DNA of 64,000 nucleotides from a bacterium (GTDB taxonomy: Bacteria > Patescibacteriota > Microgenomatia > Levybacterales > UBA12049), in NCBI GenBank assembly GCA_021777565.1, contig JAJYDJ010000002.1, positions 197,082 through 261,081 of the forward strand. Direction: 5' to 3'. A program made the translations under genes and the position numbers. Shown one piece after another: positions 3,139-53,532 of this stretch. Under the pieces are notes generated by a model. That model was not told where the DNA came from and did no database searches. It was given only the letters and a program-made list of their open reading frames with translations. Numbering within the stretch: the first letter of the stretch is position 1; every line of letters begins with the position of its first letter.

Positions 3139-3774
3139 ATGCTTTCTACAATTCTTTTCGATTTTGATGGTACCATCGCCGATACCTTTGAGCCAGCTAT
3201 AGATATTTTGTATGACATGGCGGATAAATATCATTATCCAAAGGTTGATAAGGAAGAGATTACCAAGATGCGCTCCTTGTCCATGAAAGAGGTGTGTGAC
3301 CAGCTGCATGTGCCATTGTGGAGGTTGCCATTTATCGCGGCAGAGCTTCAGGGACGGCTCTATGCCCACATGGAGCAAATACCTGCGTTTAAGGGCATGC
3401 CAGAGGCCTTAGAAAGGCTCAAGGGAATGGGGTACCGTTTGGGAATTGTCAGTTCCAACAATCAGCAAAATATCCAGCGGTTTCTCAAAGCACAGCATAT
3501 TGATGTCTTTGATGCCATTTATAGTGAAACAAGTATTTTTGGTAAAGCACGAGTTATCAGGGGATTTTTACAAAAATATCATGTGCAAAAGGATCATGTC
3601 GTCTATGTTGGTGATGAGATGCGAGACATAGAAGCTGCCAAACAAGTTGGTGTCCCAATGATTGCCGTAACATGGGGCCTTAATCTCAAGACTTCTTTGG
3701 AGAAGTTGCACCCAGAGTTTATCGCTGACTCGCCTAAAGAACTCATTGATGTTATCAAATCCTACAATACCTAA
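3139..3774 (+). CDS. HAD-family hydrolase (subfamily IA phosphatase-like)
   Basis: FDFDGTIADT motif I, later VGDEMRDIEAA motif; inserted between rpsG and fusA. Confidence 0.8.
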   Translation: MLSTILFDFDGTIADTFEPAIDILYDMADKYHYPKVDKEEITKMRSLSMKEVCDQLHVPLWRLPFIAAELQGRLYAHMEQIPAFKGMPEALERLKGMGYRLGIVSSNNQQNIQRFLKAQHIDVFDAIYSETSIFGKARVIRGFLQKYHVQKDHVVYVGDEMRDIEAAKQVGVPMIAVTWGLNLKTSLEKLHPEFIADSPKELIDVIKSYNT

Positions 3775-3794: not shown

Positions 3795-4436
3795 ATGCAG
3801 ACACTTCGTTGGCTTGGCCATGCTTCATTTCTCATAGATGAAAAATATTATATCGACCCATTTGAACTCCCTGAAGGTGATCTTCCAAAGGCTGACATTA
3901 TTTTTATCACTCATCCCCATCATGACCATTTTTCCCCCGCTGATATTGAGCGTGTTATAACACCTCAGACACTTATTGTCGCGCCGCAGGAGTGTCTGGA
4001 GACACTGCCGTATCCTGATGCACAAAAACAGATTGTAACGCCTCTACTTACAGGGAAAGCTCGCGACATAGATTTTATGACACTTCCTGCATACAATATG
4101 CATCCAGAAAAGCTGCAATTTCATCCAAAAGAAAAAGGATGGGTAGGATTTGTATTAGATATTGGTGGTAAACGAATTTATCACGCCGGGGATACCGATT
4201 TGATCCCAGAGATGTCTTCTCTCACCGATAAGCATGTTGATCTCGCATTATTGCCAATGGGCGGGATCTACACCATGGAAGTTGAAGAAGCAGCTCAGGC
4301 AGCCAACACAATTCAGGCCAAAACGACATCACCAATGCATTATAAAAGGCTTTTACAGGAGACGTCTCAAGATGCAGAAGCAAAATTCCAATCATTGGTG
4401 CATCTTTCTCAGGTTCAAATTTTGCAAGAAAAGTAA
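3795..4436 (+). CDS. MBL-fold metallo-hydrolase
   Basis: ITHPHHDHF (HxHxDH) motif; start moved to ATG 3795 (track gives GTG 3789). Confidence 0.75.
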   Translation: MQTLRWLGHASFLIDEKYYIDPFELPEGDLPKADIIFITHPHHDHFSPADIERVITPQTLIVAPQECLETLPYPDAQKQIVTPLLTGKARDIDFMTLPAYNMHPEKLQFHPKEKGWVGFVLDIGGKRIYHAGDTDLIPEMSSLTDKHVDLALLPMGGIYTMEVEEAAQAANTIQAKTTSPMHYKRLLQETSQDAEAKFQSLVHLSQVQILQEK

Positions 4437-30261: not shown

Positions 30262-31005
30262 ATGCCAACGAAAAAAAAGACAACAACAGTGAAGAAGACA
30301 ACCGCTGCTGCTCCAGTAAAACGAACCAGAACAACATCTCGCAAAGTAAAACCCCAAGAAGAAATGTTTGTTGAAGAAGTCGTAATGACAGAAACGGCAC
30401 AATCAAAAAATTCACTTTTTGCATTTAACAAAAAGAAAACAATTCGTCTTGTTATCGGTATTTTTGTTGTTGGTGTTATTTTGTACCTCATCAGAAGTTG
30501 GTTTATCGTTGCTATTGTTAACGGACGCCCAATCTGGAGATATTCATTTGATAGACAACTTGAACAACAAGGTGGTAAGCAAGTTCTTTCTAACCTAGAA
30601 ACAAAGATGCTTATTCAGCAAGAAGCAGATCGCAGACACATCACTGTCAGTGATAAAGAACTCGCAGATTCACAAAAACAAATTGAACAAAGTCTTGCGT
30701 CCCAAAATCAGACACTTTCAGCAGCATTAACTGCCCGAGGCATGTCTATGTCTGACTTTAGAGATCAACTGTATCTGCAAAAATTAATTGAAAAACTTCT
30801 TGGGAGTCAGATCGCTGTCTCAGACACCGAAATTAATGATTTCTTGGCACAGAATAAAGATTTCCTTCCACAGGGAATGAGTGATGCAGATGCGTCCTCC
30901 AGTGCACGTGAGCAGCTTATGCAACAGAAGGTACAGACAGTATTCCCAACATATCTGGCAGGATTGCAGAAAAATGCCAAGATCATTGACTTCGTAAGCT
31001 TCTAA
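30262..31005 (+). CDS. membrane-anchored SurA-N-terminal-like chaperone domain protein with Lys/Thr-rich N-terminal tail
   Basis: MPTKKKTTTVKKTT... basic tail, one TM helix, then IAIVNGRPIWRYSFDRQLEQ resembling the SurA/PpiD N-domain; no parvulin domain. Confidence 0.55.
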   Translation: MPTKKKTTTVKKTTAAAPVKRTRTTSRKVKPQEEMFVEEVVMTETAQSKNSLFAFNKKKTIRLVIGIFVVGVILYLIRSWFIVAIVNGRPIWRYSFDRQLEQQGGKQVLSNLETKMLIQQEADRRHITVSDKELADSQKQIEQSLASQNQTLSAALTARGMSMSDFRDQLYLQKLIEKLLGSQIAVSDTEINDFLAQNKDFLPQGMSDADASSSAREQLMQQKVQTVFPTYLAGLQKNAKIIDFVSF

Positions 31006-48522: not shown

Positions 48523-49809
48523 ATGTTGGATATTAAATACGTCAGGGAGAATAAGGAAAAAGTAGAGAAAGCAGCTCGTGATAAGCACATGACTGTGGAT
48601 ATTACTCATGTGTTGGAGATTGATGATAAACGAAAAGAGTTGCAAATTGTTGTCCAACAACTGCAAGAAGAGAGAAATATCTTAACCAATGCTATCACAG
48701 GTAAACCTACAGATGACCAAATTGCAAAGGGGAAAGAACTACGAGAAAGACTGGCTCGCGAGGAAGATGCACTCAAGGCAGTACAAGAAGAGTTGAAAGA
48801 ATATCTGTATAAAGTTCCTAACGTGCCTCTGGATAGTGTCCCATTCGGTGAGAGTGAAGATGATAACGTCGTAAGTAAGACAGTGGGAGAGCCAACGAAA
48901 TTTAGTTTTCAACCGAAGAATCATTGGGAGATTGCGCAACTGCATGGGTGGATTGATAAAGAACGTGCAGCAAAAGTGAGTGGTGCACGATTTGCATACC
49001 TAAAAGGTGATCTCGTACGACTTCATTTTGCTGTAGTTCAATTTGTCATGCAGACACTGACTGATGAGAGTGTTTTGAAAAAAATTATTGATGGAAACCA
49101 TCTCAATGTTAGTCCAAAAGGATTTGTCCCGGTACTTCCTCCTGCGATGGTAAGGACGGAGCCATATCAAAAAACCGCACGGCTCAACAAAGAGGAAACA
49201 ACATATAAGATTGAAGGTGAGGATGCTTGGCTTAATGCAAGTGCTGAGCACAGTCTATGCCCGATGTATATGGATGAGACACTTGAAGAACAGGAGTTGC
49301 CACTTCGCTTTATTGGGTATAGTACTTCTTTTAGAAAAGAAGCCGGGACCTATGGGAAGGATATGGAAGGTATTTTACGCATGCACCAATTTGATAAATT
49401 GGAAATGGAAAGCTTCACAACACCAGAAGAAGGATTGGAAGAACATGCATTTTTAATTGCAATTCAAGAATATCTGATGCAGGAATTAGGACTTCCTTAT
49501 CGGGTTTTGCAAAAGTGCGTTGCCGATATTGGTGGGCCAAATGCCGCAGGAGTAGACATAGAAGTTTGGCTTCCAGGTCAGCAAAAGTATCGAGAAACGC
49601 ACACGGCTGACTACATGACTGATTACCAAGCACGAAGATTACAGACTCGTATTAAAGGGAAAGGATTCGTTCATACCAATGATGCGACTGCTATGTCACA
49701 ACGTCCGCTTATCGCGATTCTTGAGAACTATCAACAAGAAGATGGAAGTGTACGGGTTCCACAAGTGCTTCAAAAATGGATTGGGAAAGAAGTTATTGGC
49801 GAAAAATAA
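48523..49809 (+). CDS. serS: seryl-tRNA synthetase
   Basis: MLDIKYVRENKEKVEK canonical SerS N-terminus; class II motifs; track GTG start 48508 includes the -10 box. Confidence 0.93.
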   Translation: MLDIKYVRENKEKVEKAARDKHMTVDITHVLEIDDKRKELQIVVQQLQEERNILTNAITGKPTDDQIAKGKELRERLAREEDALKAVQEELKEYLYKVPNVPLDSVPFGESEDDNVVSKTVGEPTKFSFQPKNHWEIAQLHGWIDKERAAKVSGARFAYLKGDLVRLHFAVVQFVMQTLTDESVLKKIIDGNHLNVSPKGFVPVLPPAMVRTEPYQKTARLNKEETTYKIEGEDAWLNASAEHSLCPMYMDETLEEQELPLRFIGYSTSFRKEAGTYGKDMEGILRMHQFDKLEMESFTTPEEGLEEHAFLIAIQEYLMQELGLPYRVLQKCVADIGGPNAAGVDIEVWLPGQQKYRETHTADYMTDYQARRLQTRIKGKGFVHTNDATAMSQRPLIAILENYQQEDGSVRVPQVLQKWIGKEVIGEK

Positions 49810-50527
49810 CTAAAAATCTATTTGCTCCAAACTCATCTCGTCGTATTTCTCCTGTAAGTCCTGAAGGAATAGTAAATGACGCGTGTGAGTGAGTGTCATC
49901 TATCTCCAGAATCGCAAATCCATCTGGTGCAAGTCTATCCGGTAATTGTTGTAAAAAGTTATTGATTATTTCAGCCCCTGTCGGCCCACCATCAAGTGCG
50001 AGAAGTGGCTCATATGCTTTTACGCTTGCATCAAGACGCTTTATTCTTTCAGAAGGGATATAGGGGAGATTCGCAGTAATCACATCAAATGTCCCACTGA
50101 TTGATTGAAATAGATCACTTACAACAAGGGAAATATCTTTTTGATCGTGTGAAATGTGTCGCTGTACATTTTTCTGTGCGATTTTCAATGCATCTGGTGA
50201 AATATCAGCAAGCGTCAACGAACAAGAAATTTCTTTTTTTTGCAGTTCTAAGAACAATGTAATACCAATACAACCACTTCCTGTGCCAAGATCTAACACT
50301 CGAACAGACTTTTTTTTCACATGATTGAGCGAAAGAGTAATGATTTCTTCAGTTTCGATACGTGGGATAAGAACATGTTCATCAACAAAAAAATCTCTTC
50401 CATAAAATTCTGCAACCCCAACAATATATTCGACTGGTTTTTCATCAGTAATTTCTTCCCAGTTTTTTTGGTGTTTGTATAAAAAGTTTTTTTCTCTTGG
50501 AGATAAAATTCTTTTTTGTGCCTGCAT
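49793..50527 (-). CDS. HemK/PrmC-family protein-(glutamine-N5) methyltransferase
   Basis: VLDLGTGSGCIGI SAM motif; ITANLPYIP (NPPY-variant) motif; overlaps serS 3' end by 17 nt. Confidence 0.55.
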   Translation of the reverse strand: MQAQKRILSPREKNFLYKHQKNWEEITDEKPVEYIVGVAEFYGRDFFVDEHVLIPRIETEEIITLSLNHVKKKSVRVLDLGTGSGCIGITLFLELQKKEISCSLTLADISPDALKIAQKNVQRHISHDQKDISLVVSDLFQSISGTFDVITANLPYIPSERIKRLDASVKAYEPLLALDGGPTGAEIINNFLQQLPDRLAPDGFAILEIDDTHSHASFTIPSGLTGEIRRDEFGANRFLVIFRQ

Positions 50528-50693
50528 AGATAAATGTGCCGATGATATAAAAAATGTTTTAGAATCAATCTAATCAATAACTTTTGAAGCTAACAAAAAC
50601 TATTGACAAACATTAAAAAAATTCTTCATGATGAGTATATCATACCTGCCCAACAACAATGGATTGTTGGAAGAACACGAGGAGGTGATCGAC

Positions 50694-50774
50694 ATGCCAG
50701 CAAAGAAAAAAACAACAAAGCGAAAGACAACAACAAAGAGAACAACCAAGAAAACAACCAAGAAGCGAAAGTAA
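50694..50774 (+). CDS. 26-aa Lys/Thr-rich basic peptide with strong SD (not in ORF track)
   Basis: MPAKKKTTKRKTTTKRTTKKTTKKRK; GGAGGTGA at 50681-88, 5-nt spacer, ATG; followed by two hairpins. Confidence 0.4.
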   Translation: MPAKKKTTKRKTTTKRTTKKTTKKRK

Positions 50775-50790
50775 GTTACTTGGTATCTTA

Positions 50791-50845
50791 ACCAATTAAT
50801 TGATCAATTGGTTTCCCCCCGCGTTTATCGTGGGGGGATTTGTGT
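50791..50845 (+). terminator. hairpins after the small peptide ORF: CCAATT-N8-AATTGG, then 9-bp GC hairpin CCCCCCGCG-tttat-CGTGGGGGG followed by ATTTGTGT
   Basis: 50791-50810 and 50815-50837. Confidence 0.5.
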
Positions 50846-50850
50846 ATATG

Positions 50851-50859
50851 TGATAAAAT
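50851..50859 (+). promoter_or_regulatory. extended -10 TGaTAAAAT 6 nt upstream of secA ATG 50866
   Basis: gTGATAAAATagatgtATGgcaATG. Confidence 0.45.
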
Positions 50860-50865
50860 AGATGT

Positions 50866-53532
50866 ATGGCAATGAATTTCCTTACCAAAATTTTTGATTC
50901 AAACGAGAAAGAGATAAAACGTCTTCAGACAATTACTACCGAAATTAATGCCCTTGAGCCTGCGATGCAGAAACTTAAGATTGAAGACTTCCCTAAAAAA
51001 ACTACTCAACTGAAAGAAAGAGTTGCTGCTGGTGAGTCTCTTGACGCACTGCTGCCGGAAGCTTTTGCTCTGGTGCGTGAAGCGACGGTGCGTTCACTAG
51101 GCATGCGTCATTTTGATGAGCAGATTATGGGAGGCATTGTCCTCTCTGAGGGGAAAATTGCTGAACAAAAGACTGGTGAAGGAAAAACGTTGACTGCGGT
51201 ACTACCACTTTACCTCCATGCATTGACTGGCAAGGGTGTTCATTTAGTTACGGTCAACGACTATCTTGCGAGACTTGGTGCTGGATGGGTAGGGCCAATT
51301 TTTGATCTACTCGGCATGAAAGTATCGGCAATGATTAATAACGCATCTTTTGTTTTTGATGTGAATTATGAAAACCCCAGTGTGAAAGATTTCAGACTTG
51401 CCAGGCTCAAGCCAATTGAACGAAAAGAAGCATATGCTGTTGACGTTACGTATGGTATTAACTCAGAATTTGGATTTGATTATTTGCGTGACAACATGGC
51501 ACAAGATAAAGCACAACTTGTACAGCGTGGATATTATTACGCGATTGTTGATGAAGTTGACTCGGTGCTTATTGATGAGGCCCGAACACCGCATATTATC
51601 TCAGCACCGGATGAAGTTCCAACAGATAAGTATTATCAGTATGCACAAATCGTAGATAAACTTGTCCCAGATACTGATTTTACACTTGATGAAAAACAGC
51701 GAAGTGCACATTTGACAGAACGCGGACTCACAAAGATTGAGAAATTATTTGGTATTACAGAAATTTATGAAAAAGATTTTGACACGGTATATCATTTGGA
51801 AGCTGCACTGAAAGCACGAGCACTTTTCCATAAGGAAAAAGATTATATTGTTCGCGATAATCAGGTAATTTTGGTTGACGAATTTACAGGAAGACTTATG
51901 GAGGGTCGTCGACTTTCAGAAGGACTGCATCAAGCACTTGAAGCAAAAGAGAATGTCACAATTCAGCGTGAATCCAAGACGCTCGCTACTGTCTCATTGC
52001 AGAATTATTTTCGTATGTATACCCATCTCGCCGGTATGACGGGTACTGCAACGACAGAGGCGGAAGAGTTCCACAAAATTTATAAATTAGATGTTGTTGC
52101 TATACCCACGCATAATCCTGTGCAGCGCGAGGATATGCCAGACATCATTTATAAAACAGAACGCGCGAAATTTGCAGCAGTAGTCAGAGAGGTTGAAGAA
52201 GCACATGCAAAAGGGCAACCAGTATTGATTGGTACTACGTCAATTGAAAGAAATGAAATTCTTTCACAATTTCTCAAAAGAAAGGGTATTGTCCACGAAC
52301 TTTTAAATGCAAAGAATCACGAACGGGAAGCGCAGATTATTGCAAAAGCAGGTGAAAAAGGAGCAGTAACCGTTGCAACCAACATGGCTGGAAGAGGAGT
52401 TGATATTATCCTTGGTGGCGACGTCCCAAAGCTTGAGGATGGGAATGTGGAGCCTGAAAGTAAAGAGTATAAAGAATGGCAGAAAAAGCATGACGAGGTT
52501 GTACAGCTTGGTGGACTGTACGTCATCGGTACAGAACGACATGAATCCAGAAGAATTGATAATCAGCTCAGAGGGCGCAGTGGTCGCCAGGGGGACCCTG
52601 GAAAGTCACAATTCTTTGTCTCACTCTCTGATGATGTCATGAGACTTTTTGGTGGAGATAGTATCGCCAATATGATGACAAGACTCAATATGCCTGAGGA
52701 CACTCCACTTTCACATAATCTTGTATCGCGCGCCATTGAACAAGCTCAAATGAAAGTTGAAGGATATAACTTTGATGTACGTAAATATGTCGTTGAATAT
52801 GATGATGTCCTTAATAAACAGCGTGAGATCATTTACAAGAAAAGAAATTCAGTACTTCTCACGGAAGATAAAGAAGAACTACATACACTCGTGCATGACG
52901 CCCTGCATGGTGCTCTTTCGCTCGTTCTCATGCAAGTGCAGGAGAGTGATGCAGATGATATGAATGCAAAGATTATGAATGAACTGGTCACCATTATTCC
53001 TTTTGATCCGACATCTCAGCAGCAGATACTCACACAACTCATGCAGCTGCGTACATTTGAAGAAAAAGAATCTTTCCTCACCCAATTACTGACCGATGTA
53101 TTTACCAAACATGAAACAGATCTCGGGGAGACGGCAGTACCTATTTATCGATTTGTTTTCTTGAAGGCTATTGATGATCTATGGATGGACCATCTTACGA
53201 CGATGGAAGCACTCCGCGAAGGGGTGAGGCTAAGAGGATATGGGCAAAAAGACCCACTGGTGGAATATAAAAATGAAGGATTCACGCTTTTTGAGAGACT
53301 CATGAACAGTATTGATGATACGGTTGCGCATACTGTCTTTAAGATTCGTATGGATGTAAATCCATTTCAACAAATGCCACAAGGTATGCCGGAAAAAGAA
53401 ACAGAAAAGATAGCATCAACGGCTAAAAAAACAAAAGAAAAAGAAAAAAAGTCTGGAGATAAACCAGGTCGTAATGACCCCTGCTGGTGTGGCAGTGGGA
53501 AAAAATATAAAAAATGTCACTTCCCTAACTAA
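50866..53532 (+). CDS. secA: preprotein translocase ATPase SecA
   Basis: DEAD motor domains, C-terminal zinc-binding CWCGSGKKYKKCH. Confidence 0.96.
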   Translation: MAMNFLTKIFDSNEKEIKRLQTITTEINALEPAMQKLKIEDFPKKTTQLKERVAAGESLDALLPEAFALVREATVRSLGMRHFDEQIMGGIVLSEGKIAEQKTGEGKTLTAVLPLYLHALTGKGVHLVTVNDYLARLGAGWVGPIFDLLGMKVSAMINNASFVFDVNYENPSVKDFRLARLKPIERKEAYAVDVTYGINSEFGFDYLRDNMAQDKAQLVQRGYYYAIVDEVDSVLIDEARTPHIISAPDEVPTDKYYQYAQIVDKLVPDTDFTLDEKQRSAHLTERGLTKIEKLFGITEIYEKDFDTVYHLEAALKARALFHKEKDYIVRDNQVILVDEFTGRLMEGRRLSEGLHQALEAKENVTIQRESKTLATVSLQNYFRMYTHLAGMTGTATTEAEEFHKIYKLDVVAIPTHNPVQREDMPDIIYKTERAKFAAVVREVEEAHAKGQPVLIGTTSIERNEILSQFLKRKGIVHELLNAKNHEREAQIIAKAGEKGAVTVATNMAGRGVDIILGGDVPKLEDGNVEPESKEYKEWQKKHDEVVQLGGLYVIGTERHESRRIDNQLRGRSGRQGDPGKSQFFVSLSDDVMRLFGGDSIANMMTRLNMPEDTPLSHNLVSRAIEQAQMKVEGYNFDVRKYVVEYDDVLNKQREIIYKKRNSVLLTEDKEELHTLVHDALHGALSLVLMQVQESDADDMNAKIMNELVTIIPFDPTSQQQILTQLMQLRTFEEKESFLTQLLTDVFTKHETDLGETAVPIYRFVFLKAIDDLWMDHLTTMEALREGVRLRGYGQKDPLVEYKNEGFTLFERLMNSIDDTVAHTVFKIRMDVNPFQQMPQGMPEKETEKIASTAKKTKEKEKKSGDKPGRNDPCWCGSGKKYKKCHFPN

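Follow-up and report, generated by a model that had tools for sequence, protein, structure and literature searches.

A tiny lysine-rich open reading frame upstream of secA in a Levyibacteriota-like bacterium: a conserved mini-gene that may encode an oligolysine polycation

The spacer in front of secA in a 64,000-nucleotide stretch of the bacterial contig JAJYDJ010000002.1, the whole of which is called the window here, contains a tiny open reading frame (ORF) of 26 codons, MPAKKKTTKRKTTTKRTTKKTTKKRK, at 50694..50774 of the + strand, with its TAA stop codon at 50772-50774. The ORF, recognized from a reading of the sequence, the ORF list and its relatives, is the core of a compact unit with its own promoter, a perfect Shine-Dalgarno (SD) sequence, hairpins around the stop codon and an intrinsic terminator. 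As its conservation indicates, this unit is a real mini-gene that has remained unannotated. The unit is best explained, with a little less than an even chance of this being right, as a gene that is transcribed independently and whose product, an oligolysine polycation, acts in trans; this explanation draws on the expression signals, the frame- and charge-specific composition, the codon choice, the independence of the unit and its recurrence in unrelated genomic contexts. According to this explanation, a self-contained transcription unit of roughly 200 nt, probably highly expressed, would lie between prmC/serS and the separately promoted secA, and the translated oligolysine peptide (26 aa here, 9-30 aa in relatives) would be its functional product. 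The peptide would act inside the cell as a nucleic-acid-binding polycation with the ribosome, RNA or the nucleoid as its target, in a mode like that of histone-H1 tails, protamines or polyamines. The hairpin in the 5' untranslated region (5' UTR) would be a stabilizing element, and the hairpins at the stop codon would stabilize the very short mRNA and may in addition link its folding to translation or form a binding site for autoregulation. Translation of the ORF, the peptide as the active product and its binding target are what we infer.

All elements that a preliminary description of this DNA had listed were found at their positions when 50200-51200 was read. The promoter of the tiny gene, P1 (50603..50632, + strand; 10/12 in a promoter scan), is composed of a -35 box, TTGACA, at 50603-50608 and a -10 box, CATGAT, at 50627-50632, separated by an 18-nt spacer. 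Downstream of P1, folding predicts the 5'-UTR hairpin CCAACAA ... TTGTTGG (50646..50673, + strand), and the perfect 8-nt SD sequence GGAGGTGA (50681..50688, + strand) is placed 5 nt before ATG 50694. The ORF that follows has 13 Lys among its 26 residues, in agreement with the earlier account of a Lys-rich frame led by an SD sequence at this spacing. GGAGGTGA occurs only twice in the 64-kb window, and the tiny ORF is the sole K/R/T-rich stretch of 20 residues in its six frames. The in-frame ATG at 50628, regarded as poorly supported from the outset, falls within the -10 box of P1 (CATGAT, 50627-50632) and is therefore upstream of the likely transcription start. An ORF of 62 aa in another frame (50603-50791) opens at a TTG formed by the first three bases of the P1 -35 box; it has no SD sequence and is not conserved in relatives. 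It is this ORF that gene callers annotated on public contigs with an identical SecA (L001/L002, 2738-2926), and it is a probable annotation artefact hiding the real tiny ORF. A hydrophobic Phe/Leu-rich ORF on the opposite strand (- strand, 50600-50761) was also considered and rejected, as it has no SD sequence, no conserved start and the wrong terminator polarity.

The window SecA is 64-68% identical to SecA of metagenome-assembled genomes of Candidatus Levyibacteriota or Patescibacteria, and the window is evidently from a Levyibacteriota-like bacterium of the candidate phyla radiation (CPR). Ten Levyibacterial loci (L003-L006, L166-L171) were fetched via SecA alone and are unbiased as to the ORF. 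The unit is present in the serS-secA spacer of nine of them (L003-L006, L166, L168-L171). In the tenth, L167, the whole unit is absent and the serS-secA spacer is 60 nt long, still with TGATAAGAT before secA. Three further members (L063, L081 and L101) came from a metagenome pattern scan, and the window and these 12 relatives constitute a 13-member family. The order of elements is shared: a TTTGA(A/G)GC motif with an A-rich tract, TTGACA, a -10 box, a 5'-UTR hairpin, GGAGGTGA, the start codon, a Lys-rich ORF, hairpins and a terminator. The motif, TTTTGAAGC in the window (50582..50590, + strand), lies just 5' of the -35 box, at the same distance from TTGACA in all 13 members, and could be an UP-element-like sequence or a regulator site. 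The motif and its A-rich tract are 12-14 nt 5' of the -35 box in the window and in 12/12 relatives, and L166, L005 and L006 have a further sequence like it, TTGAAGC/TTGAGGC, downstream of the terminator and ahead of the secA -10 box. TTGACA does not vary, and in nearly all members it is followed at 17-18 nt by a CAnGAT/GATTAT-type -10 box, the exceptions being L166 (CACTAT) and L170 (CATTCT). The 5'-UTR hairpin is present, in differing sequence, in 11 of the 12 relatives, all except L081 with its very short UTR. The SD sequence GGAGGTGA is invariant in 13/13 members, with a spacing to the start codon of 5-8 nt.

The encoded peptides are far less uniform than these signals. L003 encodes MPVKKKTAHKKTATKKATSKKTKTKAKKRK, L171 MAAKKKKAAKKTKKKSKK and L169 MAKKKKAKKKKK, while L004, L006 and L168 share MAKKKKKKK, and MAKKRKKKK and MAKKRKKRK are found in L005 and L170, respectively; one member, L166, keeps the ORF with a TTG start, (TTG)AVKKRKTKKTTKRKTKKRR. 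Thus, the SD-led K-rich frame is kept, and neither its length (9-30 codons) nor its exact sequence is. The question posed at the outset, whether relatives would preserve the ORF or the hairpins only, is answered by the nine of ten SecA-retrieved relatives in which this frame is retained. No SD-preceded ORF of 8-60 codons with at least 50% K/R was found in 39 secA loci from other phyla, and the same scan over 445 kb gave matches at the serS-secA spacer only. Retention of the SD sequence, start and frame in 12 relatives, together with their absence elsewhere, excludes a chance ORF in an A-rich spacer.

A related explanation, in which the ORF arose by duplication of the N-terminal module of the SurA-like gene at 30262, fares no better. 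The resemblance reported in the preliminary description does exist: ATGCCAGCAAAGAAAAAAACAACAAAG and ATGCCAACGAAAAAAAAGACAACAACA are identical at 21 of 27 nt, and no other non-self 27-mer match in the window exceeds 19. However, with a null model in which the K/T-rich codons of both genes are shuffled, the match over codons 3-9 has P=0.09 and does not exceed chance once K/T codon bias is taken into account. Identity beyond 27 nt, or codon 9, is about 50%, the chance level, and the regions upstream of the two ATGs are unrelated, the SurA-like gene having TATAAT 6 nt before its ATG and the tiny ORF an SD-led 5' UTR. Orthologues of the SurA-like protein (PF13624, 36-57% identity) already begin MPAKKKVTSKK..., MPTKKTSPKK... 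or MPTKKKTVTKK..., indicating that its K/T-rich tail is ancestral. In contrast, relatives of the tiny ORF begin MAKKK, MAAKK, MPVKK or (TTG)AVKK, and the MPAKKKTT start is confined to the window lineage. By these comparisons, the two N-termini are convergent low-complexity sequences, and an origin of the ORF by duplication or by chance is highly improbable. The SurA_N_3 (PF13624) protein at 30262-31005 is membrane-anchored and, like its orthologues P0121-P0128, carries a K/T/V-rich cytoplasmic N-terminal tail before a transmembrane (TM) segment; with TATAAT 6 nt before its ATG, its gene is probably leaderless too.

Constraint at the level of the peptide is seen in its composition. The 173 post-start codons of the 13 ORFs specify 111 Lys, 23 Ala, 20 Thr, 11 Arg, 3 Val, 2 Pro, 2 Ser and 1 His; Lys makes up about 64% of family residues, and Ala, Thr, Arg, Val, Ser and Pro form most of the rest. 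Asp, Glu, Asn, Gln and Ile are absent from all 13 ORFs. Glu, Asn, Gln and Ile are missing even though GAA/GAG, AAC/AAT, CAA/CAG and ATA are one step from Lys codons, whereas Ala (GCA), two mutations away, is the second commonest residue. Codons often have G at position 3 (AAG) or position 2 (AGA), and at position 1 G is confined to GCN/GTA and never found in GAR. Such a pattern depends on frame and charge and is hard to explain at the RNA level. AAG accounts for 65 of the 111 Lys codons versus 35% genome-wide (P=3e-7) and for 8 of 11 in the window ORF (P=0.012), and the longest A run in the family ORFs is 7-8. Long A runs are thus avoided, which speaks for faithful decoding and against the sliding or stalling on poly-AAA that had initially been suggested. 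Together, the restricted alphabet and the AAG bias point to selection on a polycationic product. Accordingly, among the roles first proposed, the small nucleic-acid-binding polycation is the one that the comparative data favour, given residues almost confined to K/R/A/T/V/S/P, avoidance of acidic and amide residues and the AAG bias. Hydrophobic stretches do not occur in the 13 peptides, which consist only of K/R/A/T/V/S/P/H, and their C-termini are variable K/R runs.

The unit is closed by an intrinsic terminator (50814..50846, + strand) detected by a terminator scan: a stem of 10 pairs (8 G-C) with a 5-nt loop spans 50814-50838 and is followed by TTTGTGT. This is the GC hairpin of the preliminary description, where it was given as 9 bp, and it is the sole terminator-like site in the 1.2 kb scanned. 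The stem sequence differs in nearly every member, the stems covary freely and the T run is found on the + strand only; the window, L003, L166 and L171 have a short U-tract of 3-4 U. All 13 members were folded with the ribosome footprint masked in three states, namely no ribosome, a ribosome in mid-ORF and a ribosome at the stop codon, and the terminator stem, of 9-13 pairs, persists in the three states in 13/13 members.

Beyond the terminator, secA (50866..53532, + strand, 888 aa), the neighbour outside the unit, has no SD sequence upstream. As stated previously, a secA -10 element follows the terminator: the conserved extended -10 box TGATAAAAT, taken as the secA promoter P2 (50851..50859, + strand), lies 6 nt before ATG 50866, and the terminator U-tract abuts or overlaps its spacer. 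Of the 12 members that a script could score, 9 have TGnTAA(A/G)AT 6-8 nt before the secA ATG and no SD sequence. In L169, TGATAAAAT is present and its spacing was read by eye, the secA start being mis-called; in L003, L170 and L171, an insert separates the -10-like box from the secA ATG. These inserts are 50-130 nt long (L003 2863-3000, L171 ~2425-2500, L170 ~2450-2500), those of L003 and L171 hold hairpin-forming repeats (e.g. gtcatcctgaacgcagtgaaggatc...gcctcagaatgac), and they may be miniature repeat elements displacing a leaderless promoter. Because secA has its own extended -10 box near the ATG and no SD sequence, its mRNA is probably leaderless. In the window, an extended -10 box is found 5-9 nt before the start of 10 of 69 long ORFs versus 0.9 expected (P=3e-8), and SD motifs are mainly found at internal operon genes, as in the ribosomal-protein cluster. 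Many first genes of operons carry a TATAAT-like box, often with the TGn extension, 5-9 nt before the ATG and no SD sequence, examples being the starts at 3139, 27603, 30262, 32337 (- strand), 32990, 38099, 39491 (- strand), 44302 (- strand), 55948 (- strand) and 57021. Leaderless mRNAs seem to be the rule in this Levyibacteriota-like genome.

These data bear on the possibility that the unit is a cis-acting leader of secA, in which a ribosome on the Lys codons would report the supply of Lys-tRNA or the translation capacity and would modulate either terminator read-through or the overlapping secA promoter, through interference or hand-over of RNA polymerase. A run of codons for a single amino acid, hairpins and a terminator make up the classical attenuator layout; 12 of the 13 Levyibacterial loci examined carry the unit, each time directly 5' of secA; the U-tract touches the secA promoter; and the subtypes with long ORFs, including the window, may leak owing to their 3-4 U tracts. 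However, the masked folds give no antiterminator. Since secA has its own promoter and no SD sequence, a read-through RNA would carry an internal AUG without an SD sequence, and L167 has kept its secA -10 box without having the unit. Furthermore, secA is not connected with lysine metabolism, constraint extends to the non-Lys codons, as it does not in his/phe/thr/trp leaders, and similar ORFs convergent with prmC have nothing downstream. A cis leader is therefore quite improbable.

The location of the unit also invites comparison with monitoring substrates of the SecM/MifM/VemP type, in which a ribosome arrested on the ORF would uncover the translation start of secA and be released by Sec activity. 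The criteria published for finding Sec/YidC monitoring substrates (PMC10987492) are three: a signal or TM sequence, an arrest sequence conserved at the C-terminus and a spacer longer than 30 residues. The unit shares with them the position of a short ORF 5' of secA, and this alone favours such a role; none of the three published features is found in its polar, basic peptides of 9-30 residues with variable C-termini. In addition, the terminator intervenes and secA has no SD sequence to sequester. A SecM-type substrate is the most improbable of the explanations considered here, and the secM-like upstream ORF of the preliminary description is given up: the peptide has neither a signal or TM sequence nor an arrest motif, a terminator separates it from a secA gene with its own -10 box and no SD sequence, and TGATAAGAT is kept where the unit is missing. 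By all these features, neither secM-type control nor classical attenuation fits the unit.

Two hairpins are located between the stop codon and the terminator. Hairpin 2 is the palindrome CCAATT-aattgatc-AATTGG (50792..50811, + strand; CCAATT at 50792-50797 and AATTGG at 50806-50811), the inverted repeat noticed earlier, and is unique in the window; its form in relatives, CCAATTGATCAATTGG, is conserved in sequence. Hairpin 1 (TTGGT/ACCAA, 50780..50795, + strand), which was read by eye, starts 5 nt after the stop codon. In the window, it shares sequence with hairpin 2, its 3' arm overlapping the 5' arm of the latter (TTGGT/ACCAA versus CCAATT/AATTGG, by eye), and it is absent from the window's own minimum free energy fold. 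In members of the L004/L005 type, the stop codon itself is paired inside hairpin 1 (UAAUUGGUAAGC...GC.UUACCAAUU), where two pairs show compensatory changes. In three of four subtypes, the window included, the 3' arm of hairpin 1 doubles as the 5' arm of hairpin 2 or can invade it, and because of this shared arm a terminating ribosome would shift the pairing. In the fourth subtype (L005/L006/L168/L169), the arm is duplicated and both hairpins can coexist, and hence the switch is not universal. The window palindrome is self-paired in all three ribosome states of the masked folds. Folds of individual sequences were used throughout, since MAFFT and RNAalifold alignments were unreliable owing to the repeated arms AATTGGTAA and TTACCAATT. 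Among the variants of CCAATTGATCAATTGG, CCAATTGATCGATTGG, CCAATTGATCAGTTGG and CCAGTTGATCAATTGG are G-U-compatible on the + strand only, and CCAATTGATCATTTGG has one U-U mismatch. As three of the four variant types are compatible with pairing on one strand only, an RNA hairpin is favoured over a DNA operator. The operator was rejected also because the half-site layouts of hairpins 1 and 2 differ and the distance to the secA start varies.

Several features of the unit weigh against an oligolysine peptide as its product. MAKKKKKKK, with 9 residues, is very short for a stable functional product, and ORF length is free between 9 and 30 codons. The palindrome is the most sequence-conserved element of the unit, more so than the peptide; the stop codon is inside hairpin 1 in 9/13 members; and the pairing of the palindrome changes with ribosome position in 7/13 members in the masked folds. 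With the stop codon inside a hairpin and the pairing able to switch, what matters may be the RNA itself or the act of translating it, and a cis function could lie behind the strict position that the unit keeps 5' of secA throughout the clade. Basic protein families showed no detectable homology to the peptides: 10 poly-K peptides scanned against NCBIfam and Pfam had no significant match, a sequence search of PDB chains gave none, and a 50-aa poly-K query of a large protein database gave none at E<=1, probably as a result of low-complexity correction. Literature searches on Lys-rich small Patescibacteria proteins, poly-lysine leaders, lysA attenuators, leaderless CPR genes and CPR ribosome structures likewise gave no description of the element.

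It is conceivable, therefore, that the RNA is the functional product, namely a small structured RNA that acts in trans or binds a protein, possibly with a dual function, and that the SD sequence and the mini-ORF load ribosomes which remodel or stabilize it. A ribosome at the stop codon would then open hairpin 1 and re-pair the conserved CCAAUUGAUCAAUUGG element. The degree of conservation and the uniqueness of the palindrome, its G-U wobbles workable only in + strand RNA, the two compensatory pairs of hairpin 1 with its embedded stop codon, the change of palindrome partner under footprint masking and the unconstrained ORF length are all consistent with a functional RNA. Consistently, the stop codon of the lysA-adjacent group described below is also located at the foot of a long 3' structure that is conserved. 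However, ribosome loading alone would need neither 64% Lys nor the exclusion of D/E/N/Q/I nor an AAG bias, and the switch is not shared by L005/L006/L168/L169, where both hairpins can coexist. No conserved target complementarity was found either. The idea that the hairpin arms pair in trans with the 5' coding region of secA (via UUUGGUAAA in some genomes and via CUUACCAAA in the window) was rejected, since a match, seen by eye, occurs in some genomes only and is not conserved across members. Rfam 15 detected only tRNA in the window, nothing in 20 related loci and sub-threshold noise in a permissive search of 50560-50900; in the absence of an Rfam match, signal recognition particle RNA or another housekeeping RNA beside secA was also dismissed. 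A functional RNA is unlikely on balance, though it is a serious contender.

Tiny ORFs of the same kind occur in other genomic contexts and apparently in other metagenomic lineages, which lends further weight to an oligolysine gene. The metagenome scan used the pattern GGAGGTGA-N5-7-ATGSCA-N0-3-AAGAAAA and matched at least 120 loci. About 36 of the matches listed (at least 120) are tiny K-rich ORFs of 6-89 aa with a perfect SD sequence, and the other matches listed are ordinary proteins beginning MAKK or MPKK. ORFs of the class were selected at >=40% K/R; the K/E-rich ORF of L110 and a few unrelated basic ORFs were set aside. In all groups the alphabet is K, A, T, V, R, P and S, and 0 of 914 codons of the ORFs so selected (>=40% K/R) specify D, E, N, Q, I, L, F, Y, W or C. 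The GC content of the loci with varied contexts ranges from 0.30 to 0.68. To judge by this recurrence, tiny poly-lysine ORFs are a widespread unannotated class.

Two groups within this class have a constant genomic context. In at least 11 loci (L047, L052, L071, L090, L116, L118, L121, L127, L147, L148 and L163), the ORF lies between nadD (- strand) and lysA (TIGR01048). This lysA-adjacent unit has a common promoter (TTGACA), a 5' UTR, '...aaaggatttaatcagccaaaaGGAGGTGAtaaaataATG' and an ORF of 21-36 aa of the MAKKKAKKKAKKK type (K/A/V/T). The stop codon is at the base of a conserved multi-hairpin 3' domain of 60-200 nt with the closing stem GCGUAAC...GUUAUGC, which has no Rfam match, and the unit ends in the strong terminator AAUGGAAGGUU...AACCUUCCAUUUU (example L163, reverse strand, oriented 4155-4415). 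A promoter of lysA, TTGCAA-17-TATACT, is found between this terminator and lysA in the six loci whose spacer was displayed. Since the terminator is thus followed by a promoter of lysA's own, a Lys-codon attenuator of lysA was rejected, and the lysA-adjacent unit looks independent of lysA. In at least four other loci (L132, L140, L153 and L158), a poly-K ORF of 18-35 aa with a terminator is convergent with the 3' end of prfA-prmC (TIGR00019, TIGR03534); there is no downstream gene to regulate, and the PrmC sequences have diverged. The window unit also adjoins prmC, but divergently, and a link to translation termination is possible. In L070, a 22-aa MPTKKKAPAKKTATKKAPAKKK ORF (oriented 1560-1628) with a terminator-like hairpin lies ~150 nt 5' of an HU-family gene (1776-2048, by eye) that has its own SD sequence.

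Stop codons of the class are unevenly used. TAG, which is read only by RF1, ends 6 of the 13 Levyibacterial tiny ORFs and 8 of 9 ORFs of the lysA-adjacent group, and TGA is never used; the long ORFs of the window end in TAA (55), TAG (10) and TGA (4). This preference may simply reflect the pairing of the stop codon in the hairpin.

A broader proposal, doubtful at present, is that oligolysine peptides (~9-50 aa, K + A/T/V/P) are widespread, abundant polycations in CPR/Patescibacteria and other uncultivated bacteria that replace polyamines or act as counter-ions of the ribosome or nucleoid. They would be made from dedicated transcripts with perfect SD sequences and stop-codon hairpins, the 3' structures being translation-coupled or peptide-binding autoregulators.

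In the window, the PrmC gene (49793-50527, - strand; TIGR03534, 199.1 bits, at the cut-off) adjoins the unit upstream in divergent orientation, with serS before it. L166-L171 share the order aminoacyl-tRNA synthetase, Ham1, serS, poly-K unit and secA, L167 being without the unit. The synthetase upstream of serS is a class-I lysyl-tRNA synthetase (PF01921) in L168 and L169 and of the class-II tRNA-synt_2 type in L166 and L167; the presence of lysS two genes 5' of a poly-Lys ORF may be a coincidence. The database SecA of L169 (2501, P0073, 926 aa) is called from a start within the palindrome, ~60-70 nt before the real ATG, an over-extension caused by the unannotated unit.

Tiny ORFs such as these are missed by gene callers and lie outside the families of Pfam, NCBIfam and Rfam. 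Should the peptide prove real, the 9-residue MAKKKKKKK would be among the shortest conserved bacterial gene products, and an overlooked supply of polycations to ribosomes or the nucleoid would exist in streamlined cells. If the RNA or the act of translation is what matters, the unit would be a new translation-coupled RNA element. In either case, the tempting secM analogy is removed for secA, which appears to be leaderless like many genes of the window genome.

Several known systems resemble the unit in part. SecM, MifM, VemP and ApcA/ApdA/ApdP likewise consist of a short ORF directly 5' of a protein-export gene. Unlike them, the unit encodes peptides of 9-30 residues without a signal or TM sequence and without an arrest motif, and a terminator stands between its ORF and a secA gene that has its own extended -10 box and no SD-sequestering stem. 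The hisL, pheL, thrL, trpL and leuL attenuators have in common with the unit a mini-ORF rich in codons for one amino acid (Lys, 111 of 173), alternative hairpins with a terminator, and a stop-codon ribosome footprint that overlaps the first hairpin. In the unit, however, the alternative hairpins never compete with the terminator in masked folds of the 13 members, the gene that follows is secA, with its own promoter and outside the lysine pathway, and the non-regulatory codons are constrained in composition.

The small basic ribosomal proteins bL37, bS22, bTHX and eL41 are products of stand-alone genes, have at most 35 aa and extreme positive charge, and are often missed by annotation; their sequences are family-specific, conserved in length and mostly Arg-rich. 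In contrast, only composition is conserved in the unit peptide, whose length varies three-fold (9-30 aa), and with no match in PDB chains, NCBIfam or Pfam the likeness to these proteins is one of size and charge. The C-terminal tails of histone H1, chlamydial Hc1/Hc2, AlgP and the tail of mycobacterial HupB have the same K, A, T, P, V and S alphabet and expected disorder. One poly-K ORF of another lineage gave a sub-threshold match to PF07382 HC2 (E=0.5), and the window peptide gave none. Proteins of the H1/Hc2 type are much longer or are appended to folded domains, whereas the likeness here is compositional. The dual-function RNAs SgrS/SgrT, RNAIII/hld and SR1/SR1P resemble the unit in being short, structured, terminator-ended transcripts with a mini-ORF, as predicted here; unlike in these, no base-pairing target was identified for the unit, and its strongest expression signals belong to the ORF. 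Matching none of the families searched, the unit appears to stand nearest to two kinds of element, the small basic-peptide ORF and the dual-function small transcript.

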